A stretch of DNA of 64,000 bases from Emiliania huxleyi CCMP1516 (taxonomy: Eukaryota): NCBI RefSeq assembly GCF_000372725.1, contig NW_005201202.1, positions 124,001 to 188,000 on the forward strand. The letters run 5' to 3'. Position 1 is the stretch's first letter; the number at the start of each line of letters is the position of its first letter. The position numbers and the translations under genes were made by a program. The notes beneath the pieces are model-generated. The model had not been told where the DNA came from and made no database searches. It worked only from the letters and a program-made list of their open reading frames with translations. Below, one piece after another: positions 18,487-30,434 of this stretch.

Positions 18487-19986
18487 TCACCGCAGCTTGT
18501 TCCCGCCGGTGAGCTTCGCCCAATAGTCATCCTTCTCCTCGGCGCTGCTCGGCGCGCCCGCAGACGCGTTCAACACCTTCATCCCCGCCATGCCGCTGCC
18601 CGCTGCGCCGCCCGCCCCGCCCCCAAGAGTTTGCCCGCCGCTCGGCGCCGCCCCAGAGAGCACCTCCCCCGACGGCCCGATCCGCACGCCCAGCCTCGTC
18701 GCCGCCGCCTCGCCGCTCCCGCCTCCGACCGCCTGCCCGCCCTGAGCCGCGGGTGACGCCTTTGCCTTGGGCGGCTTGATCGCCTTGCCGTCGAGCCGGA
18801 AGCCGGACCCGGTGAAGGAGGGGGCAGCCTCCTCCTCCTGACGACGCAGGGGGGGGGGGGGGTCCGCCCTACCCCGCGCACGCCGAGCGCCTAGGAGAGG
18901 CGAGGGGTTGGCTGCAGCGGGGACGGCCCTCGTGCATCCCGGAGGGGCGGAGGGGCGGAGGGGCGGAGGGGCGGAGGGGCGGAGGGGCGGAGGGGCGGAG
19001 GGGCGGAGGGGCGGCGGCGGGGTGCGAGAGGGAGGCTGGCGGCGGGGGAGGGGGCGTTGTCACTGCGCGCCTCGGACGAGTCGCCGTCGAGGACCGGTGC
19101 TCCCATCGGCTGCAGCACCGGCGACTTTGAGAGCGGAGAGGCGGAGGGCGGCGTCGGCGTCTTCGCGGGCCTGGGAGGCTCGACGTAGTCTGCGGGGGCC
19201 TCGAAGTCAAGCTGCATGTCCGTCTCGATGATGCACACCGCCTGCGAGGCCAGGCGGCGCACGTGGCTTGGCCCGCGCGACCCCTCTGGGGGGGGGAGGC
19301 GGGCCGTAGCCCGCCCCTCGCTGGCGAGCCTCGGCGGCGGTGCGTGCCGCCGGCTTGCGCGGTGCCCTGGGCGGGCGGATCGGGTGGGTGGTTGGGCTCC
19401 TGGGAGGCGGCTCGGGGGCCGGAGGGGAGGGCGCCTGCGGCTGGCCGGGCGCAAAGTCTCCCCCGTGTCGCTTCACCTCGACGACGCCAATGTCGTACTT
19501 CTTTTTGTTGTACAGGATGCGGAAGGTCTGCCCCTTTGTGAGCGCTGAGAAGTTGCGGAGCGACTGCTCGAGCACAACCTTTGGGTTGGAGATCTTGATG
19601 AAGTCGGTGAGCTGTGGCTGCAGCTTGACGTACGACCCCTTGTTGAGGTTGACCGACCGCAGCTGGATGATGTCGCCCTCGCTCACGCGCAGGTTCTCCA
19701 TCATCCAGTACGGCAGGTACGCCATCCCCTCCTGTGCGATGAACTCGAGCACGCCGCAGTGCAGCTTGCGCTCCATGGCGCGCGGGTTGGCGATCTGGAA
19801 CATCATTGGGTACTGGATCTCCAGCTGCGCCAGCTTCTCGAGGCACGACGGTGGCAGGATGATCTTGTCCGAGTACTCGAGCCGGCTCGCGTCGCGCTGC
19901 TGCTCCGCTGCGAGCAGCGAGACGCTGTGGCAGCGGAACGAGTCCTGGAAACCTCGGCTACCGAAGCCGCCCGGAAGGCCAAACAT
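18487..19986 (-). CDS. UFD1: Ubiquitin fusion degradation protein 1, multi-exon
   Basis: DKIILPPSCL, YPMMF, HCGVLEFIAQEG, LPYWMM, ISNPKVVLEQSLRNFSALT, IIETDMQLDFEAP and SHP-box-like FTGSGFRL. Confidence 0.95.
18940..19012. repeat. (GGAGGGGC)n octamer repeat in a UFD1 intron
   Basis: About 9 tandem copies. Confidence 0.85.
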
Positions 19987-20193
19987 CGACAAGAGCGGGG
20001 AGAAAGGGCAGAGGCGCGCGACGAGCAGGGCGCGCAGGGCGGCGTTAGCGAAAAGAATTTAGGGCGCCACGACACAGGAGCTCCCGTGGTAGTGGTAGTG
20101 AGAGACTGCTGGTGAGAAGCCGGAGGAAGGTCGCTAGTCGAGAGAGATCGCCAGTGGAATAGGGAGTCCACCGTGCTGCGAGCCTGTCGCTGT

Positions 20194-20407
20194 GTGGCGT
20201 GAATGCTTTAGCATTCTCGCCCGCTCTGCTGAGGGGAGGGGCAGGACGAGCGGTCGCCTGAGGCGCCTATCTCTATCTACCCTCTCTTGTGGTTTGCCAG
20301 CGGGGCACGTGGCCAAGGACGACGTTTCAGATCGCGCGTCCGCTTGTTTGCGCACCCGCGTGCTCGTCCACGCCACTGTCCTCCCGCCCCCTTTGATCTC
20401 TGTCGCC
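20194..20407 (+). repeat. Split direct repeat A1
   Basis: Matches 29867-30081 except one substitution and one C indel. Confidence 0.95.
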
Positions 20408-20415
20408 TGTCGCTG

Positions 20416-22881
20416 ATGTCTGCCATTGAGACGCTTGTGGAAGTGGCGCTTGCCAAGGCCACCAAGGACAGTGCCGTGCATGGCGTGGACAAGGATCAAT
20501 ACCTGTTGTGTTCCTCTGTCGTCAAAGCCGATGTGCGCAATTACCATACCGTCGAGGTGCTGCAGAAGGGACTCGACGAGAGCCAGGCCAAGGCGGCCGC
20601 TCTCGCCCTGCTATCGCAGCAATACCCTCAGCTGGCCGCAGGCGGAGGCACCGCCTCGGATGGCCCCGCCGATGCGGCAGAAAAGGTTGTCAAGACACTT
20701 GAGCGTTTGTCGTCATCACAGTTGGGTCACCTGGCCGCGGGCTGGGCCACGCAGCTCGGAGAGGCATTCACCAACGCGAGCATTCTTTCGACAGTGGAGG
20801 CCGGCTCGCTCGCGGGCCGCACCGGCAGCGGCAAGGTGCCGCTCGAGAGCGGTGAGGAGGCGCAGATGTCTTACACCGTCATCCAAGGACCATCCGAGGG
20901 CATGTACGTGCTCGAGGAGAGCGGAGCACAGGGCGAGCCACGACGCTCGGTCATCCTCAACACCACGCTGGTGACCCTCATGCTACAGCCGACGCAGGCA
21001 CACGTCGTCTCGAACGCGACGCTTGTCAAGATCAACGGCTCGAGCAGTGCTCTGGCTGTTTTCCGCAAGTTGCCCAAGTCAGGCAGCGCCGCCGAAGACC
21101 ACGTCTCGCTAGAGGAGATTCTCCAGTTAGCAGACGGTCTTCCGGCCGCGGGCGCGGTCTCGCTCTCGGGAGAGGAGCGCGTCAAGACGTTCGCCCGGGC
21201 TCTCGAGGCCAAAGTCTCCGGCGGGGAAGGCTCTAGCTGGTTGGCGGCAGTTGGGGACAAGGCGACCTACTCCGTCTTCGAGCTTCGGAGTCAGCTCGAG
21301 AGGCTTGGCCCCGACTTCACGCCGGTCGCCGCGCTGCCCGCACCCAAGTCGTGCGCGGAGTTCTTCACGCGCAACATCCGCGGGGAGAACTGGGGCGCCT
21401 TCGCCAAAAGGGTCGCCCCTCTGATTGAACCCGATGAGCAGCGGTGCAATTTCATCCGCTCCAGCGAGACGGTCCTTCGCGACGCGATCGAGCGATGGCT
21501 GGAAAGTGGGCTCGGCAGCCTCCGAGAGGCTTCCGTTGCGTCGCTCGCCCTTCGCACCGACTGGTCGGTGGACGCAGCGTGCTCGCTGATGTACCAATTT
21601 GCGATGGCCAAGGACCAGCAGCGGCTCGCCCCGCCCACTCCGCCACCGGGCGTGCCGCCTCCGATCCTTACGCAGCCGATCATCAAGATCACGACGGGCG
21701 GATCGGGTGAGGGCGGCGACGAGGCCCTCTCCGCGGCCGCTGCCGCGCAGAGCTTGACGACCGCGGAGCGCGAGTGCGTCAAGAGGCTCGCCGCATTCGC
21801 CGCCATCGAGGACAACAAAGGGGTCGATGAGATCGCCAAGTACATCGACGGCGCGTCGTCAGCAGGCGCGCCCTCCCCGCACATCATGCGCCTAGTGCAC
21901 GCGACAGACGCTAGCGTAAACAGCCTTGCGTCGTCGTACGTTGCGGACGACGGTTTTGTTGTCGACCTTCGGTCAATTCGCCGGGCCATGCTTCGCCGTC
22001 TGGAGTCAATGCACTTTGGCTTCGCGACTGACAAGCAATGGTCAGAGGAGCAGCGCCGCCAAGCAGGACGCATTCGCGTCGGGCGCTTCAGCGAAGTGGA
22101 CATCGCCTGCCTTTTGGAGGGTCAGCAAGACGGCTTCTCCAAGAAGGCGCCGCTGGCGCACATCAGGTGCCCTGTCAAGCTGCAGATGGCGCTCGGAGTC
22201 TTCTTCAGCATCTGGGCAAAGGCACACCTCACCTTCTCCAGCCATATCCTCGCCTTTGGCGCGAATGTGGCCCGCTTTCTCCACCAGACGCGAGAGGACG
22301 GAGCCTCGTGGGAGCAGCTCTCGGACTACTGGCGGAAGCTGATGCAGAAGTGCGAGCAGCCCGCGCTCCGCTTCGAGCGCAAGGAGGCACTCGCCCCACT
22401 CCAGCCGCCGCTACTCAAGTGGGCGGACGACCGCTCCGTCACACACGTTGCGGAGCTCATGGACGCCGTCAACCGGAGCGAGCGAGAGCGGCTCGCCAAG
22501 CTGCTCGAGGAGGCGCGCGCGCCGAAGGAGAGCGCAGAGCTTGCCGAGCTCCGCAAGATGGTCAAGCAGCAAGAGAGCAAGCAGCAGCAGCACGAGGAGC
22601 GCCTCGTCGCCGTCAAGAAGCGCTTGGCCGGCGGCGACGGCGGCGGTGGTGGCGGCAAGCACAGCAAGCGCGGCGGCGGCGGTGGCGGCCGCGGCGGCGG
22701 CCGCGGCGGCGGAGGCGGCGGCCGTGGCGGCGGAGGCGGCAACCCGCAGAAGCCCGGGGAGACCCAACAGGAGCTCAACGCCCGCCTCGGCCGCAAAGAC
22801 GGCAAGGACCCGTGCTGGTTCCACCACATCAAGGGCTCCTGCCGTTATGACGCCGCCGAGTGCCGCGGCCATCACGGCTGA
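20416..22881 (+). CDS. Gag-like ORF1 (~821 aa) with coiled coil, RGG tract and C-terminal CCCH-type zinc finger
   Basis: First ORF after A1. C-terminus reads KRGGGGGGRGGGRGG...CWFHHIKGSCRYDAAECRGHH*. Confidence 0.8.
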   Translation: MSAIETLVEVALAKATKDSAVHGVDKDQYLLCSSVVKADVRNYHTVEVLQKGLDESQAKAAALALLSQQYPQLAAGGGTASDGPADAAEKVVKTLERLSSSQLGHLAAGWATQLGEAFTNASILSTVEAGSLAGRTGSGKVPLESGEEAQMSYTVIQGPSEGMYVLEESGAQGEPRRSVILNTTLVTLMLQPTQAHVVSNATLVKINGSSSALAVFRKLPKSGSAAEDHVSLEEILQLADGLPAAGAVSLSGEERVKTFARALEAKVSGGEGSSWLAAVGDKATYSVFELRSQLERLGPDFTPVAALPAPKSCAEFFTRNIRGENWGAFAKRVAPLIEPDEQRCNFIRSSETVLRDAIERWLESGLGSLREASVASLALRTDWSVDAACSLMYQFAMAKDQQRLAPPTPPPGVPPPILTQPIIKITTGGSGEGGDEALSAAAAAQSLTTAERECVKRLAAFAAIEDNKGVDEIAKYIDGASSAGAPSPHIMRLVHATDASVNSLASSYVADDGFVVDLRSIRRAMLRRLESMHFGFATDKQWSEEQRRQAGRIRVGRFSEVDIACLLEGQQDGFSKKAPLAHIRCPVKLQMALGVFFSIWAKAHLTFSSHILAFGANVARFLHQTREDGASWEQLSDYWRKLMQKCEQPALRFERKEALAPLQPPLLKWADDRSVTHVAELMDAVNRSERERLAKLLEEARAPKESAELAELRKMVKQQESKQQQHEERLVAVKKRLAGGDGGGGGGKHSKRGGGGGGRGGGRGGGGGGRGGGGGNPQKPGETQQELNARLGRKDGKDPCWFHHIKGSCRYDAAECRGHHG

Positions 22882-25800
22882 TGGCCAGCGGCAGCCTCCG
22901 ACCCGCCCGGCGGCCCATCGACGCCGAGTGTGGTGCCCGAGGCAACCGTGCCAGTGTCGTGCGTGACTGATGTGAGTGATTCGGCTGTGTGTGCGCATGG
23001 GTGTGATACGCAGCATGACAGCGGAGGGGAGGGCGGCGGGAGCGATGTGGAGGTGGGTTCTAGTGCGCCCCCGCCGCAATCGCCGCATCCCCGAGACGGA
23101 CGGAAGTCCGTCGATCGAGATTTGGCAGCAGCTGCTCTGGGCAGCTGCGACACTAGCCCGAGCGCGCCGCGCGGGCTCCTCCTGCACCTGTTCGCGGGCG
23201 GGCCGCGGGATGGGAGCTTCGCGCACTTTGCCACCGCGCTCGGCTTTGATGTGATTGAGAGAGACATCATCCTCGACCCCGGCCATAACCTGGTCGACGA
23301 TGGCGTCTTCGCCGAGGTGATGGAGCTCATTCAGAGCGGCGCGGTCAAGGCGGTGCTTTTGGGCACGCCGTGCGGCACCTTCTCCGTCCTGCGCATCCCG
23401 CAGCAGGATGGTCGAGAGGGCCCGCCGCAGCTGCGCGACCGGCTACACCCCATGGGCATGCCCGGCGTGCCGCGCCAAAACCTCAACGAGCTGGCGACCG
23501 CAAACGTTCTCGTGCGTAGAACCGTGATCATCGCTCAGGCCATCGCCGACGCGGGCGGCGTCTTCATCATCGAGAACCCGCCCGACAGAGGCGATGGCCC
23601 GCTCTACCAGGCCAAGTTTGCATCGCACGCGCCTCTGTGGCTGGTGCCAGAGGTCATCGAGCTCGCCGACCGCACTGGAGCGATCAAGATCACCTTCCCC
23701 CAGTGCGCCCTCGGCTCGGACTTTCAGAAGTGGACGACGCTGCTGGTCTCGCCGCAGCTAGTCCCGCAGCTCGTGGACCTCTCGAGGCTCGCGTGCCAGC
23801 ACCCCGACGGCCACCGTGACGTCGCTGTCGGCGCACGTGCAGCGCGGGCTGCTGCGTACCCTCCGTTGATGAACCGCAGACTGGCCGAGGCGATCTCGGA
23901 CTGCCTCACGTCGCTCGGCGGCGGTGCTCCGAAGGAGAGCAGCCATCTCGCCGGCGACGCTGCGGGCGAGGCTAGCGAGCCGGCGGGCGAGGATCTCGAC
24001 GCCCCCGCCGCCGGCCGCGGCTCGCCAGGCATCGTCGCAGATGCTGTCGATTGCCGTCGTAACGATCTGCGTGGCAGCAAAAGGTCGCGCGACGGGATGC
24101 GCGACGCGCAGCTGTCTCAGCGCGCGCGACAGCGACTGAAGCGGCGGCAGGCCGCATCCAGTGGTGAGGCAGGCGACGGGCGAGGTCCTGGGTGCAGAAC
24201 CCGCCCCGACCCTGCCGATCCACCGGAGCGCGACACTGCTGCCGACACCGAGCTACTGCCAGAGGCCGCGCAGGCGCCCGCCATGGCGGTCGGGTCTGCC
24301 ATGCCCCATGCGGGGCCGCTCGGCGAGGTGGCGGTCGGCCGGCGGTCGGACGAGGGGTCGGTCGACATCACACGCCTCGGCGTGCTCGGCAATCCCTTTC
24401 CGATCCGCCCTCTCGTCGCGAGGGGCATGGATGACGAGGTGGCGCGCCGCGCAGTGTGCGACGCGCACAGGCTCTACCTGCGGCGCGTCATGAACAGGCA
24501 GGAGGCCGATCTCGCAGAGATAGCAGGCACAGTCGGCGCGCCAGCCGACGGTCAGCCTCTCGTCTATCAACAGCCTCCCGCACCGGAGGCAGTGCGAGGC
24601 GAAATCGACCGTCTTGCATTCGTCGTTGCCCGAGGTGGTCGCCTCCTCCTCGGCTGCGTGTGCGCACCCGAGCAGTGCCACGGCGACGCCGTGAAGGAGG
24701 CTATCCTCACGGCGGCGATGGAGAAGCGGGTCTGCGCCGAGCCGCGCGGCCCCCCCGCCTCCGGCTCGCTGCGGAGGCTGGTTCCCGAGCAGGAGGACGT
24801 TCTCCGAGGTAAGCTGCTGCCCGTCGCCAACGAGCCGCCGTCGACCGACCCCGTCGAGCCGCCCGCCGAAGATCGGACTCCGCCGGCCCCGCTGCGCACC
24901 GCGGAGCTCATCCCCGGGCCAGTCATACGGCGGCTGCGGCGGTTCCGCCGGGACGTACGCACGTGCCTGCGGCTGGCGGCCAAAGGCAAGTGGAAGCGAG
25001 CGAGGGGCGCTCGACCCGAGGCCGTCTACCTCAGCGAGGAGGAGGCGATCCTTCCGGCGGGCCGAGGTTGGACCTGGCGCCACGATCCCGACGCCGACCT
25101 GTGGCACCCGATCACGCCCTCCGCGTGGCCCTCCTCCGAGCCCGTCGGCGAGCTCGACCGCGCCGCCGTCGCCGAGCTCGCCACCGATTACCCGGACCAG
25201 GAGATCGTCTCGTACATGTTGCACGGATACCCGGGCCCGCACATTGCGCCGAGATGCCTGCTCGGCCAGCCGCACGTCGGCGCGCTCAAGGAGCACGCCG
25301 GCTTTGCCAAATGCGCGGCCAAGGACCGCGCCAAGGGCTGGGTCGAGGCTGGCAGAGAGCTTCCTCCCGTCTGGCCTTACTGCGCCGACCCCTTCAACGT
25401 TGTCGAGCGTTATGGCAAGTACCGCATGACCATCGACAAGACGATGACGCTAGTCCCCGGTGTTACCTCGTACAATGACTCGGTCGACCTCGACTCGATC
25501 GACCCAGTCGAGTACGCCACCATCCGGGACCTCGCCGAGGCGTCCGCGATACTCGCGACCGCCGGAGTGCCCATCGCGCTCTGGGGCTTCGACCTGGAGG
25601 CGTACTTCCGTAAAACCGGCAAGCAGCGGCGCGACGTCTGGATGTCCGGCTTCGTCCACGAGGACGGTTTCGGACTCGACGAGCGGATCCAGTTCGGGCA
25701 GCGCGAGGCTCCAGTCCTCATGTCCCGACAGAGCTGCTATCTCGTCTGGGCGATACGTCGCGAGATCGAGCGGCTCGAAGCCAAGTACCCGCCGAGGGAT

Positions 25801-26937
25801 CCCGTGGTCAGGCGCTGGCTCGAGGCGCGGCGTCGGCTCGCTGCCGGCGCCGCGGCGTACCGCGGGGCCGCTCTCTCCTTCATCCTCATGTACGTCGACG
25901 ACCTGGGCGGCGTCTGCGTTGATGATGACGTCGAGGTTGACGGAGTCGTGTGGCGGCGCAGCCAGCTTTACTATGTGGCCGCCAAGGCTGTGGTCGAGCA
26001 GCTCGGCCACTCCATGGCCGACGACAAGCTCAGCCCACCTTCGCGCGAGGGCATGGAGTTTCTCGGCGCGTACCTGCGGATCCTAGATCAGCGCGTCCTG
26101 CCCGCCGAGGGCAAGTGCGAGAGGTATGCCGCGGCGACTCGCGCCGTCCTCGATGTGGAGCCGTCCGGAGGCGTCGTGGTCGTGCCGAAGGAGGCGCTGA
26201 ACTCGCTCACGCACAAGCTGCTGCACGCGGCCTCGTTCATCCCGCTCGGTCGGCAGCATCTGTATCACGTGCGTCGCGCCCTCAAGGCGGAGAACAGGCT
26301 CGCCGGCGCGAGGGCGACGCTCGGCAGGGCCGCGCTCGCCGAGCTGCGGTGGCAGCTCGCTCAGCTGGAGCTCCAGGAGCCCGTCGGTGTACCGTTTGCC
26401 ACGCGGAGCCGCTTCCCGGCGGCGGGATCAGCCGGAGTGCTGACGCCCTACTCGGACGCCTCGAAGGAGGAGGACTCCTCCGAGAGCGGCTTCGGCGCGT
26501 GGTGCGTCATCGACGGCACTTTCGTGTACGTCGAGGGTCGCTGGACGCCGGAAGAGTGCAAGCAGCACTCGATCAACGTCCTCGAGCTCGCGGCGATGAA
26601 CATCGGCACGTTCGCCTTCCTCGACTACGCCGAGGGGCGCGGCTTTGACGTGCAATACGTGCACGAGTTCGTCGACAACGAAGCCGCCGAGTTTGTCGCT
26701 GACCGCGGCAAGCCGCGGGCGCCCGCGATGGAGGACCTGCTCGGGAGACGTTACGAAGCCTTTTGGGAGCGTGGCATCTTCGCCGCCGCCTCGCGCATCG
26801 CCTCCGTCGATAACGACATCGCTGATGGCCTGTCGAGGGGCGGCGAGAGGCTCGAGGACGCGCTGCGGATCGCCGCCGCGTCGGGCATGCCGACTCTCAA
26901 GCTCGAGCCGCAGCCGCGGTGGCGACAGCTGTCGTGA
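22882..26937 (+). CDS. Pol ORF2: C5 DNA-methyltransferase-like + DUF4326-like + reverse transcriptase + RNase H
   Basis: MTase-like HLFAGG, GTPCGTFS, IENP (23176-23890). DUF4326-like VDITR..LGNPF...LGCVCAPEQCHGD (24361-24700). RT FDLEAYFR, QFG, YVDD (25891). RNase H YSDAS, INVLELAA, VDN, NDIADGLSR. The frame is open from the gag stop codon. Confidence 0.88.
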   Translation, partial: WPAAASDPPGGPSTPSVVPEATVPVSCVTDVSDSAVCAHGCDTQHDSGGEGGGSDVEVGSSAPPPQSPHPRDGRKSVDRDLAAAALGSCDTSPSAPRGLLLHLFAGGPRDGSFAHFATALGFDVIERDIILDPGHNLVDDGVFAEVMELIQSGAVKAVLLGTPCGTFSVLRIPQQDGREGPPQLRDRLHPMGMPGVPRQNLNELATANVLVRRTVIIAQAIADAGGVFIIENPPDRGDGPLYQAKFASHAPLWLVPEVIELADRTGAIKITFPQCALGSDFQKWTTLLVSPQLVPQLVDLSRLACQHPDGHRDVAVGARAARAAAYPPLMNRRLAEAISDCLTSLGGGAPKESSHLAGDAAGEASEPAGEDLDAPAAGRGSPGIVADAVDCRRNDLRGSKRSRDGMRDAQLSQRARQRLKRRQAASSGEAGDGRGPGCRTRPDPADPPERDTAADTELLPEAAQAPAMAVGSAMPHAGPLGEVAVGRRSDEGSVDITRLGVLGNPFPIRPLVARGMDDEVARRAVCDAHRLYLRRVMNRQEADLAEIAGTVGAPADGQPLVYQQPPAPEAVRGEIDRLAFVVARGGRLLLGCVCAPEQCHGDAVKEAILTAAMEKRVCAEPRGPPASGSLRRLVPEQEDVLRGKLLPVANEPPSTDPVEPPAEDRTPPAPLRTAELIPGPVIRRLRRFRRDVRTCLRLAAKGKWKRARGARPEAVYLSEEEAILPAGRGWTWRHDPDADLWHPITPSAWPSSEPVGELDRAAVAELATDYPDQEIVSYMLHGYPGPHIAPRCLLGQPHVGALKEHAGFAKCAAKDRAKGWVEAGRELPPVWPYCADPFNVVERYGKYRMTIDKTMTLVPGVTSYNDSVDLDSIDPVEYATIRDLAEASAILATAGVPIALWGFDLEAYFRKTGKQRRDVWMSGFVHEDGFGLDERIQFGQREAPVLMSRQSCYLVWAIRREIERLEAKYPPRDPVVRRWLEARRRLAAGAAAYRGAALSFILMYVDDLGGVCVDDDVEVDGVVWRRSQLYYVAAKAVVEQLGHSMADDKLSPPSREGMEFLGAYLRILDQRVLPAEGKCERYAAATRAVLDVEPSGGVVVVPKEALNSLTHKLLHAASFIPLGRQHLYHVRRALKAENRLAGARATLGRAALAELRWQLAQLELQEPVGVPFATRSRFPAAGSAGVLTPYSDASKEEDSSESGFGAWCVIDGTFVYVEGRWTPEECKQHSINVLELAAMNIGTFAFLDYAEGRGFDVQYVHEFVDNEAAEFVADRGKPRAPAMEDLLGRRYEAFWERGIFAAASRIASVDNDIADGLSRGGERLEDALRIAAASGMPTLKLEPQPRWRQLS

Positions 26938-27139
26938 GTCCGTCCCGGGCCGTGTATGGCGCCGCGGGCGGCGGGTGGCTGGTTGCCCCCAGAAACCAGC
27001 TCGGGTACCCGTCTCGCCGACGTCGGGCGGGACTGGTACGGCAGTGGAGGCAGGAAGCCGCCCTGCCCGCGCCGACCGGACGGAGTAGTCCGTCGAGCGC
27101 GCCGTGGGGCCTGGAGATGCCCCGGAGCCAAGGAGCGTG

Positions 27140-27587
27140 CTGTCAGGGTCCCTTCAGGGAGCGACTGCACCGTGCTGTCAGGGTCCCCTCCGGGGAGCGA
27201 CGGTTCGAAGGGCGCTGTCAGGGTCCCCCTCGGGGAGCGACGGCGCCCGACCGTCAGGGTCCCTACGGGGAGCGACGGCTGAAGCGCAAGGGGTACTGTC
27301 AGGGTCCCTTTAGGGAGCGACGGTGCCCTACTGTCAGGGTCCCCTCCGGGGAGCGACGGTTCGAAGGGCGCTGTCAGGGTCCCCCTCGGGGAGCGACGGC
27401 GCCCGACCGTCAGGGTCCCTACGGGGAGCGACGGCTGAAGCGCAAGGGTACTGTCAGGGTCCCTTCAGGGAGCGACGGTGCCCTACTGTCAGGGTCCCTA
27501 CGGGGAGCGACGTTCGAAGGGCGCTGTCAGGGTCCCCCTCGGGGAGCGACGGCGCCCGACTGTCAGGGTCCCTACGGGGAGCGACGG
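27140..27587 (+). repeat. Array of 12 hairpin-forming repeats (consensus CYGTC-AGGG-TCCC-loop-GGGA-GC-GACGG), arranged as three 4-unit blocks
   Basis: Blocks start at 27140, 27296 and 27451. Linkers of 7-17 bp recur with period 4. Confidence 0.95.
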
Positions 27588-27861
27588 TACGCAGCCGCGG
27601 CAAAGGGCCTGCGCTGCAGTGGTCGCCACTTCAAATGGACTGGCGGGCAATGGGTGGATGACGAACGGCGGAACAATCCGTGGCATGGTTGCTCGGCCGG
27701 GAGCGTCGCTCTGATGAGCAGCGCCTCCCTCTCCCCGTCCTAGTCCCACCACACGCCTCGTGCGCATTGCCACCGGCGACTCGCCGGTCATCCGCATCTC
27801 TCTGGCCTTCTCAGGTGAGGAAAGGCCGCCTCAGCCGGATCCCGGGTACGGCTACGCCGCG

Positions 27862-29580
27862 ATGCCGGGCTGCGAGGCGAGCCGAGAGAGCACCACCCCG
27901 GTACCTGATCCATCGAGCCAAGCGCCCGCCCTCGCCCCGCACTGGCCGGGGAAGCGGAGTGCGCCGGAGCCGGATCCGCCGCGTTGGCGCGTCGACGAAG
28001 CGACGAGGGCAGCCGGGGCTGGCCGCGTCGCCGATCCAGAGAGCGCCCGGCGCGGAGGCAGCGCCGGAGGTGCCGGGCAGGGGGCCGTCTGTGACCCGTT
28101 CGTGGGGGGCGCGCCGCTCACTGCCGTCGCCGTCGAACGACCCGGCGACGCAGACGCGCCCAAGGCCGACGCTGCCCCGATGGGGAGCGCGTACCGCGAG
28201 CTCGAGACAGCCTCGGAACGGACAAGAGCCGATGGCGCCGTGCTCGCGGATCCGAAGCTTCGCCGGATGAGCGTTCGTTTCGCAGAGGCGATGGCGGTGC
28301 CGCCTGGAGACTTCGTGGAGGAGGAGGGCGGCCAGCGCGTCTTCGTGAAAGACGAAATCGCGCCCAGCCGCGCGTTCGCGGCGCTCTCGATCAAGGATCC
28401 AGCCGCGCGCGACGCGATCGGCTCGCAGTACCTCGACGACGAGGGTGAGCCGTTCAAGTACTCGTTCGACGCCTCCCTCGAGCCCAGCTCGCACCCGCTG
28501 GACGCGGAGAAGCAGCTGGAGCTACGAGGGCTCGACAAGGGGATCGAGCAGGCGCTCGAGGCCGCCACCCGCGATATGAAGGGCGGCGCAACATCCACCG
28601 GCGTCAGGGCGTGGCACGCCTTCTGCCGCCACTTTGGCCTCGCGCCGTACCGCCCGTTAGACACTATCGCCACTCTTCCGCGGAAGCTCGCCGAGGAGCG
28701 GCTCGTCATGCGCTTTGTCATGTGGCTGGTCGAGTCGAGGGACATTCTCGCCTCGACGGCAGCCAATTACGTAGGCTCGGTGCAAGGATGGCACCTCCGC
28801 CGAACGGGAGTCAAGTTGGCAGCCGGGATGAGGCTGGCTCGCGTGGCCGAGATGGTCAAGGGCCTGCGGCGGCTGCGAGGCGACCCCGGCCGACGAGTGC
28901 GCCGAGGCGTGTCGCCCGACGTGCTGCGCGCGCAAATGGACGCGATGCTCGATCCGAGGACGGTCGATGGCGCCAACATGCGCGCCGCCCTCTCGCTGGG
29001 CTTCCAGGGGCTGCTGCGGGGGGCCGAGTTCACCGTCAGAGGCCGCCAGTGGGACCCCGCCAGGGACATGTCGCGAGCTGACGTCGCTGAGCTCTCCGCG
29101 GAGAGAGCGGTCGTCATGATGCTGCCGTGCAAGAACATGCAGCATCTCAACGGCAAGACCGTCCCGCTCGTGGTCGGTGGCGGCGGGCTGTTCATCGACG
29201 CCCCAGCTGAGCTGCGCAACCTCCTCACCGTCGACCCGGTGTACGGCGACCGCGCCACGCGCACGCCGCTGTTCCGCCACGCCGATGGCTCCGCCATCAC
29301 CGAGGCGCAGGTGCGGGACATGATCAAGCGGCTGATGCAGCGCGCCGGTGCGTCGCCCGCCGAGTTCGGCGCCCACTCGCTGCGCATTGGTGGCGCGACG
29401 GCGCTCTTCAAAGCGGGCGCCTCCCAGATCGACATCATGACGATGGGGCGGTGGTCGTCCGACTGCTACCGCCTGTACGTCCGCGCCTGCTTCGGTCACG
29501 CCGTCGAGTGGTCGAGGAAGGCCGGGTCCACTAGCGTCGACGACGTCGCCGAGGAGTACAAGGAGGTGGACTGTTACTGA
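27862..29580 (+). CDS. Tyrosine recombinase ORF3 (start uncertain; frame open from at least 27760)
   Basis: FQGLLRGAEF, HSLRIGGAT and MGRWSSDCYRLYVR supply the R-HxxR-W-Y catalytic set typical of DIRS YR. Confidence 0.93.
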   Translation: MPGCEASRESTTPVPDPSSQAPALAPHWPGKRSAPEPDPPRWRVDEATRAAGAGRVADPESARRGGSAGGAGQGAVCDPFVGGAPLTAVAVERPGDADAPKADAAPMGSAYRELETASERTRADGAVLADPKLRRMSVRFAEAMAVPPGDFVEEEGGQRVFVKDEIAPSRAFAALSIKDPAARDAIGSQYLDDEGEPFKYSFDASLEPSSHPLDAEKQLELRGLDKGIEQALEAATRDMKGGATSTGVRAWHAFCRHFGLAPYRPLDTIATLPRKLAEERLVMRFVMWLVESRDILASTAANYVGSVQGWHLRRTGVKLAAGMRLARVAEMVKGLRRLRGDPGRRVRRGVSPDVLRAQMDAMLDPRTVDGANMRAALSLGFQGLLRGAEFTVRGRQWDPARDMSRADVAELSAERAVVMMLPCKNMQHLNGKTVPLVVGGGGLFIDAPAELRNLLTVDPVYGDRATRTPLFRHADGSAITEAQVRDMIKRLMQRAGASPAEFGAHSLRIGGATALFKAGASQIDIMTMGRWSSDCYRLYVRACFGHAVEWSRKAGSTSVDDVAEEYKEVDCY

Positions 29581-29669: not shown

Positions 29670-29866
29670 GGGGTAGGGAGCAGCACCTCCCCCCTCACCA
29701 CGCATGTCAGGCGCGGCCGCCGCCGAGCGCGGCGGCCGCCCAGGCCTCGTGGCCGATTTGTTTGTCTCGCAAGAGGAGCGCATTTCTCAATTCAACTACC
29801 TCCTCTTCTTCGAGACCCTCTCGCGCTATGAAGGCGGGCGAGAGGAGGGAGGGGCCCCTTGCAGAG
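29670..29866 (+). repeat. Split direct repeat B1
   Basis: 197 bp, no difference seen from 30238-30434. Confidence 0.95.
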
Positions 29867-30081
29867 GTGGCGTGAATGCTTTAGCATTCTCGCCCGCTCT
29901 GCTGAGGGGAGGGGCAGGACGAGCGGTCGCCTGAGGCGCCTATCTCTATCCACCCTCTCTTGTGGTTTGCCAGCGGGGCACGTGGCCAAGGACGACGTTT
30001 CAGATCGCGCGTCCGCTTGTTTGCGCACCCGCGTGCTCGTCCACGCCACTGTCCTCCCGCCCCCCTTTGATCTCTGTCGCC
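29867..30081 (+). repeat. Split direct repeat A2
   Basis: Copy of A1, directly abutting B1. Confidence 0.95.
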
Positions 30082-30237: not shown

Positions 30238-30434
30238 GGGGTAGGGAGCAGCACCTCCCCCCTCACCACGCATGTCAGGCGCGGCCGCCGCCGAGCGCGG
30301 CGGCCGCCCAGGCCTCGTGGCCGATTTGTTTGTCTCGCAAGAGGAGCGCATTTCTCAATTCAACTACCTCCTCTTCTTCGAGACCCTCTCGCGCTATGAA
30401 GGCGGGCGAGAGGAGGGAGGGGCCCCTTGCAGAG
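30238..30434 (+). repeat. Split direct repeat B2
   Basis: Copy of B1 at the element's right end. Confidence 0.95.

Follow-up and report, generated by a model that had tools for sequence, protein, structure and literature searches.

Twelve hairpin monomers arrayed in tandem between the pol and tyrosine recombinase (YR) genes of a 10.2-kb retrotransposon form a real, family-specific feature of the Emiliania huxleyi CCMP1516 genome that lies in a probable intron. The array, delineated by a pattern search and monomer parsing, occupies positions 27135–27592 on the + strand of the window (the whole 64-kb stretch of DNA that was analysed), with monomers of 35–45 nt and hairpin cores at 27140–27587. 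We tentatively propose, at somewhat less than even confidence, that it could act as a multivalent tag by which Gag or an export factor would recognize the unspliced genomic RNA.

Results

The element is delimited by split direct repeats arranged A1-[ORFs]-B1-A2-B2, the Ngaro/PAT layout of the DIRS order. All four repeats lie on the + strand: the 201-nt A1 (20194–20394) is 99% identical to A2 (29867–30067), and the 197-nt B1 (29670–29866) is identical to B2 (30238–30434), which forms the right end. Terminal repeats and open reading frames agree with the earlier note in placing the array inside a YR retrotransposon, between pol and the recombinase. The gag-like ORF (20233–22881, +; 20417–22881 from its first ATG), named for its position, gave no Pfam match; its C-terminal end combines a tract rich in Gly and Arg with a CCCH-like motif. 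Pol (22882–26937, +) continues in the same frame past the single TGA stop at 22879–22881, which directly follows the CCCH-like motif. Its N-terminal domain (23152–23910, +) is, judging from motifs, the predicted model and Foldseek, a C5-cytosine methyltransferase fold: the PC and ENP motifs are invariant in 20 sequences, the model has a pLDDT of 89.6, and the best Foldseek matches are to DNMT1 (E 1.4e-5, TM about 0.41, 12–15% identity). DUF4326 follows at 24334–24699 (+; profile match, E 2.3e-6); among 94 Pol homologues it is annotated only in the window family and its sister family, an annotation that suggests a recent domain gain. Further downstream are what we take, from their motifs, to be reverse transcriptase (RT) and RNase H; YVDD and the RNase H acidic residues are visible and conserved, but no Pfam or PDB profile matched. 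The methyltransferase thus shares an ORF with RT, and the YR has a separate ORF, as in SymbioDIRS-Dnmt3-like elements. The YR coding exon (27815–29580, +; frame open from 27718) matches Phage_integrase PF00589 at E 1.3e-5 and 25.5 bits, below the gathering cut-off of 27.1; its HSLR (H-x-x-R) motif and downstream Tyr are visible, and the protein has 402 homologues.

The 90% cluster of Pol includes two E. huxleyi CCMP1516 gene models, and the element is present in marine DNA and RNA runs. Read depth over the element exceeds that of the host flank, which is consistent with several element copies, though it gives no copy count. A 101-nt high-depth repeat (20093–20193) abuts the left end; its contigs extend on either side into other sequence and were seen in every RNA run examined, and it may be a preferred target or belong to another element. 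The adjoining host gene (19207–20058, −) presumably encodes a protein resembling ubiquitin fusion degradation protein UFD1, judging from its translation.

The core pattern GTCAGGGTCCC-N(2-6)-GGGAGCGAC has 12 exact matches, at 27142–27585 on the + strand, which are all its matches within the 64-kb window; 100 shuffles gave a mean of 0.00, and the 4-nt-loop form, allowing up to three mismatches, has no further copy in the window outside the array. The 12 structured units reported earlier are therefore upheld, as are their variable apical loops and the stem extensions of the odd-numbered units. However, the monomers fall into four loop/linker types, and a 156-nt four-unit block is repeated 2.9 times at 95% match, leaving about five independent monomers rather than twelve. 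Most units contain the stem that had been claimed for each of them, the exceptions being unit 1, which is divergent and has a U-U mismatch, and unit 10, in which one lower-stem G is missing and the loop belongs to another monomer type. Loops are 4 or 5 nt long between the inner arms, a variation that a hairpin tolerates, and 4 of the 12 are cUACGg, which we take to be UNCG tetraloops. The linkers, 7–19 nt long, recur every 156 nt and are not unique spacers, and the description of the array as CRISPR-looking does not stand. Rfam returned nothing at the gathering threshold in 26900–27900 (best E 0.14), and no match was found to an SRP helix-8-like register. A Hammerhead_II match at 27666–27727 was rejected (E 2.5, with GGAA instead of GAAA), and three single core-pattern matches in viral contigs were attributed to chance; contig L003 is phage-like.

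Folding favors the sense strand, as the earlier note had proposed. The + strand RNA reaches −276.8 kcal/mol (z −4.89), with none of 100 shuffles as stable, versus −223 kcal/mol (z −1.36) for the − strand. The odd units have 10-bp lower stems. According to the predicted ensemble, the lower stem is paired within its own unit with a probability of 0.59–0.99 in units 3, 5, 7, 9, and 11, versus 0.00–0.11 in the even units and 0.03 in unit 1. The even units are predicted to pair mainly with other units, around the odd ones, re-forming the same internal loop in reverse; folding of a unit as its own hairpin is accordingly predicted for units 3, 5, 7, 9, and 11, not for the even ones or unit 1. The global fold reaches −274.1 kcal/mol, compared with −247.5 kcal/mol for local hairpins only in a span-limited fold. 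Either predicted fold, local or rod-like, displays a purine-rich internal loop many times, and this loop is predicted to contain an isolated G-C pair (AG bulge, G-C, G.G).

Sequence constraint follows the core. Between the four monomer types, 23–24 of the 24 core positions are identical, as against 1–3 of 4–6 loop positions and 3–9 of 7–18 linker positions (Fisher p 7e-4 to 1e-7, for a core delimited post hoc). Core identity alone is not decisive because conversion between shared cores gives the same picture, and conversion does happen in the array, since the loop of unit 10 comes from another type. The significant covariation that had been expected was not found: core pairs are never changed on both sides, and double changes are confined to linker pairs, where they stem from about three events. 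Linker covariation surpasses shuffles only on relatedness-sensitive measures (4–5 of 500), and 199 of 500 shuffles do as well in the number of linker pairs with a double change. The proposed bias of G-U pairs toward the + strand is present but thin, with G-U in 3 pair columns versus A.C in 2, of 13. Overall, the evidence for a selected RNA structure within the array is suggestive, not strong.

These patterns invite a neutral reading, the chief rival of the tag though judged rather unlikely, whereby an intronic hairpin was duplicated by RT template switching, the cores were homogenized by conversion, and the linkers drifted, the whole being functionless. The threefold recurrence of the four-type block and the exchanged loop of unit 10, as a sign of conversion, fit this reading, and the linker changes can be viewed as CpG transitions in about three lineages (roughly 1 in 8 by chance). 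Conversely, three odd-unit types acquired complementary extensions that differ in sequence, and the element shows no CpG depletion (o/e 1.15).

To place the array among its relatives, 53 related loci from one scan of metagenome contigs were compared; element relatives were absent from viral and prokaryote genome collections. The pol end is missing in L038, L048, L054, and L055, and L035, L053, and L056 were left out of the tree and groups. The remaining scheme comprises 22 locus groups, of which five lack a covered spacer, leaving 17 for comparison; a quick tree of these loci only was used solely to name sister groups. A second copy of the window family, L007, retains all 12 units and differs at three places: AGCG replaces AGGG in unit 3, one loop is changed, and one stem is broken. 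Two of these differences, the stem break and the internal loop, fall in the core. One shallow RNA contig carries A27180G in the internal loop, and either this change or the AGCG of L007 may be an error. Thus, the kept core reported earlier is borne out between monomer types, whereas its AGGG loop is not invariant outside the window.

The array is missing from the sister family (L004–6, 75% protein identity; three copies, one covered to the YR), and 14 of the 17 groups with a fully covered spacer have no spacer array, a count that is biased because short-read assemblies break at arrays, which may be undercounted. The three array-bearing groups are the window family plus two from a single distant clade. 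One of the latter, L049–51, belongs to the L041 family in decayed form, reducing the three groups to two lineages. The AGGG/GC loop was found in no other family's spacer in a structural search of the related loci, where the window array matches L007 alone in sequence. Sequence comparison thus indicates that the motif is private to one family and that hairpin arrays at the pol-YR position arose in at least two lineages. Absence from related copies had been named as grounds for abandoning the array; it is absent from related families and present in the family copy. It looks like a lineage-specific add-on that may be functionless.

Three arrays, unrelated to one another, occupy the same position in the distant clade, with units of 83/102 nt, 91 nt, and 179 nt (L041:7310–7860, L049:9820–10560, and the spacers of L043–46 and, for the 179-nt unit, L047). 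Hairpin arrays unrelated to that of the window are present in L041/L049–51 and L043–46. The first two (83/102 nt and 91 nt) consist of hairpin pairs containing ATTGG. The hairpin-pair unit of L041/L049 folds much better on the + strand (for example, −43.4 versus −25.7 kcal/mol) and has G-U in 13 pair columns versus A.C in 3; its covariation does not rise above shuffles (36–443 of 500). Within the same loci, tandem arrays with a period of at least 30 number 3 in 13.9 kb of spacers versus 2 in 127 kb elsewhere, mostly coding. Rfam gave no matches in the 20 of 53 related loci scanned, and spacer folding z-scores were mixed across 20 loci, with short spacers lacking structure.

Two further structures were observed in the spacers of relatives. 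The single hairpin of the L008 and L009 spacers is present three times, dispersed, in the L010 spacer (L010:6510–6790), which may represent an early amplification stage. Directly 5′ of the acceptor, a non-coding block of ~300 nt is more conserved than its flanks (L012:1880–2190, L029:1590–1920, L034, L036, and L042); it has a predicted multi-stem fold with 6 of 107 predicted pairs doubly changed in four sequences, gave no Rfam match, and is a possible single-copy counterpart of the array's role.

This distribution bears on several readings. The lack of an array in the sister family and the unrelatedness in sequence of the relatives' arrays favor the neutral reading, as does the frequency of hypervariable tandem arrays in Ogre 3′ UTRs, according to the parts of PMC7004042 consulted. 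Opposed to it are the + strand bias shared by the window array and the unrelated L041/L049 array and the concentration of arrays with a period of at least 30 in spacers. The sister family also has both the methyltransferase and DUF4326, which leaves the suggested recruitment of that module unsupported. The same point weighs against a signal at the DNA level, in which the array would supply internal promoter or enhancer sites, or sites in folded single-stranded cDNA for the YR or the methyltransferase. For such a signal, which we regard as distinctly improbable, speak an invariant core that equally suits sequence-specific DNA binding, better folding of the + strand as DNA as well (−133 versus −97 kcal/mol), and ATTGG in the clade-X units, which we take to be a reverse CCAAT. 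However, the half-site spacing varies by 1 nt, the 86–146-nt spacers of relatives leave little promoter room, and the expected site of YR action is the terminal junction. A further point in its favor is that DIRS-1 makes single-stranded cDNA of both strands, as stated in the part of PMC7192593 consulted.

The expression of the three genes determines which RNA would carry the array. A single in-frame stop parts gag and pol in 16 of 19 loci, including the window, and a CCCH-like end precedes it in 15 of the 18 others, which suggests that the stop at 22879–22881 is read through to make Pol. Downstream, the pol-YR spacer (26938–27814, +; 877 nt) would, by sequence comparison, form the 3′ part of an intron ending in a polypyrimidine tract and AG (27791–27814, +), 227 nt 3′ of the last core. 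This AG, at 27813–27814, scores highest of the 115 AGs between the spacer and the YR core. Acceptors were picked in 21 loci, with those of L008, L009, and L020 chosen by hand; 18 of the 21 read YAG/G, and an in-frame stop lies 3–15 codons upstream in 11. In six loci (three groups), the conserved WPW motif precedes the first Met, so the YR cannot start there. Furthermore, five clade-X loci are alignable from the pyrimidine tract and AG onward, whereas their upstream spacers differ, and three haplotypes of the window family differ in frame upstream of the AG. Acceptor phase was rejected as evidence of an intron, since the phase-1 bias also occurs in coding controls (11/17 versus 22/37). These comparisons make a fairly strong case that the YR would be made by splicing to AG 27813–27814.

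The donor is supported at a moderate level, at 25619 within RT or at 22802. Scoring donors locus by locus gave no common site, whereas an alignment scan ranked the window 25619 column best, donor-like in 18 of 20 groups; the candidate 5′ splice site there reads G/GCAAGC (25619–25625, +), within the RT motif RKTGKQ. G/GYAAG occurs in 18/20 groups versus 35/61 other Gly-Lys codon pairs (p 0.006, uncorrected), and a synonymous codon test gave GGY in 18/20 and AAG in 20/20 against backgrounds of 0.64 and 0.81, in a column selected on the same property that was later tested. Joined to AG 27813–27814, this donor would yield a 2196-nt GC-AG intron with the frame kept. The second candidate, 22802, lies just before the Gag finger and is donor-like in 8 of 12 groups. 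According to the part of PMC4028052 consulted, GC donors are the majority in E. huxleyi and intron retention is frequent. No splice joint was found in the contigs of six RNA runs; at depths of 2–6 this is no proof of absence, and the contigs show neither strand nor level and may include DNA. Two RNA contigs (depths 3 and 4.4) cross the AG unspliced, and one begins 23 nt before it; they count against the intron, although genomic RNA must keep it and retention is frequent in the host. The array thus lies in a probable intron on sequence grounds.

Such a position suggests that the array might instead control splicing, its structure and G-runs 227 nt before the acceptor setting how much genomic RNA stays unspliced relative to the spliced YR mRNA. 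This role appears improbable. It gains from the location near the 3′ splice site of the probable intron, from the element's need for both RNAs, and from the clade-X arrays, which likewise end 80–200 nt before acceptors; it loses from the similar acceptor without an array in most relatives and from the lack of splicing in the contigs of the six RNA runs.

An effect on translation is very improbable, whether the array is coding or serves as an IRES for the YR. The IRES-like role suggested earlier gives way to the splice acceptor, which explains YR expression better; with the array in an intron, an IRES would be unnecessary. The coding version relies on a 305-codon frame through the array (26826–27743, +; from the ORF list) that would join the YR without C27739. 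This frame is stop-free, the block measures 156 nt, the combined length of the two shortened dimers is divisible by 3, and the 27739 deletion is found in L007, one RNA contig, and protein P0284. Nevertheless, the window's closed allele occurs in three of the four stored full-length YR proteins of the window family, L007 is shifted out of frame once more at 27691, and translation takes the monomers in different frames although their DNA core does not vary. Long frames free of stops are also common (111 of at least 100 aa in 18 kb), no longer near-identical YR protein occurs among 41 matches, and no Met precedes the conserved YR motifs in the six related loci; the open frame is probably incidental.

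No Gag-YR fusion proteins were found, the five long matches being Pol-YR ORFs of distant elements. Those proteins of distant relatives (P0238–P0242) combine Pol and YR in one ORF, which is consistent with a YR working while fused to upstream domains. Within the sister family, the YR frame of L004 (L004:3770–4940) is open from the pol stop, so that gag, pol, and YR share a frame interrupted by single stops; L005 and L006 have indels where it is open.

Discussion

Our preferred reading, the tag on unspliced genomic RNA, would begin with one short hairpin motif amplified within the pol-YR spacer of a retrotransposon family. Readthrough of the gag stop would give Pol, and a spliced mRNA using AG 27813–27814 would give the YR. 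With either donor, 25619 or 22802, the array would fall inside the intron and be kept only by unspliced RNA, the form that needs export and reverse transcription; the tag would mark unspliced RNA only, given that the recombinase mRNA is predicted to lose the spacer by splicing. Purine-rich loops displayed 12-fold, in a local or rod-like fold, might then serve as binding sites for the CCCH finger of Gag or for an export factor of the host, which is a weak step of the scheme. Binding would favor export or packaging of genomic RNA, as with psi and RRE/CTE. The tag would be a family-specific booster and not a clade requirement. Core identity, the + strand bias, retention in L007, and unrelated arrays at the same place are counted for the tag; the arrayless sister family, the lack of core covariation, the L007 changes that hit the core, and the missing splice joint are counted against it.

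Gammaretroviruses make Pol by stop readthrough and Env from a spliced mRNA. It is possible, though doubtful, that split-repeat YR elements in general express their genes like simple retroviruses, with gag-pol readthrough and a spliced YR occupying the position of env, and have repeatedly evolved, through tandem amplification, intronic psi- or RRE-like arrays that mark their RNA for Gag, the window array being one of them. The analogy with HIV-1 psi/RRE and CTE/MTE concerns the way of working: purine-rich internal loops at several sites, confined to intron-retaining RNA. As described in the portions of the two sources consulted, HIV-1 packaging is driven by unpaired guanosines kept only in unspliced RNA (PMC4576207), and the RRE binds Rev at several purine-rich loops (PMC4488727). 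Unlike psi, RRE, and CTE, the array has no sequence or Rfam match, consists of tandem monomers rather than one folded domain, is not conserved across its clade, and has only a putative partner.

Among known elements, SymbioDIRS-Dnmt3 shares the A-coding-B-A-B repeats, a C5 DNMT in the Pol ORF with RT, and a separate YR ORF; the window element differs in its haptophyte host and its additional DUF4326, and its methyltransferase has DNMT1-type proteins as best structural matches. The part of the SymbioDIRS-Dnmt3 source consulted (PMC5890265) mentions neither a spacer array nor splicing. Ngaro elements, such as those of Cafeteria burkhardae (PMC8547959, as far as consulted), share the A1-[ORFs]-B1A2B2 arrangement, the order gag, RT/RH, YR, the absence of ORF overlap, and the H-x-x-R and Tyr residues. 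By contrast, the window element is 10.2 kb long, encodes a C5 methyltransferase, and carries the array in an 877-nt pol-YR spacer. Ngaro elements are described as lacking a methyltransferase in the part of PMC3266345 consulted; the element departs from this strict definition, but the definition refers to DAM-type methyltransferases, and we therefore assign the element to neither Ngaro nor PAT. Tat/Ogre 3′ UTR arrays (PMC7004042, in the parts consulted) are likewise tandem, specific to their family, and located at a constant non-coding site 3′ of pol, whereas the present repeats are hairpins, fixed in the core and variable in the loops, that lie in the probable intron of a YR element. CRISPR arrays share palindromic repeats of similar size and short spacers; here, the 7–19-nt spacers recur every four units, the setting is a eukaryotic retroelement, and there is no Rfam CRISPR match. 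The literature covered, which included few subscription papers and no supplements, describes no such array or spliced YR for DIRS-order elements, and the consulted parts of PMC7192593, PMC3266345, and bioRxiv 10.64898/2026.05.21.726589 do not mention such an array.

These findings matter for how DIRS-order elements express their YR and select their own RNA, elements whose primer is described as unknown in the part of PMC7192593 consulted. If the array is neutral, it would be an example of hairpins seeding tandem repeats in retroelements. If it serves as a tag for Gag or for export, the 12 copies of a 25-nt motif would offer an easy handle for binding and structure studies, in a family present in a culturable alga; as a mark for Gag, the array would be a first defined RNA ligand for a DIRS-order Gag. 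Finally, if the splice holds, the start-less recombinase genes of the clade would be explained.
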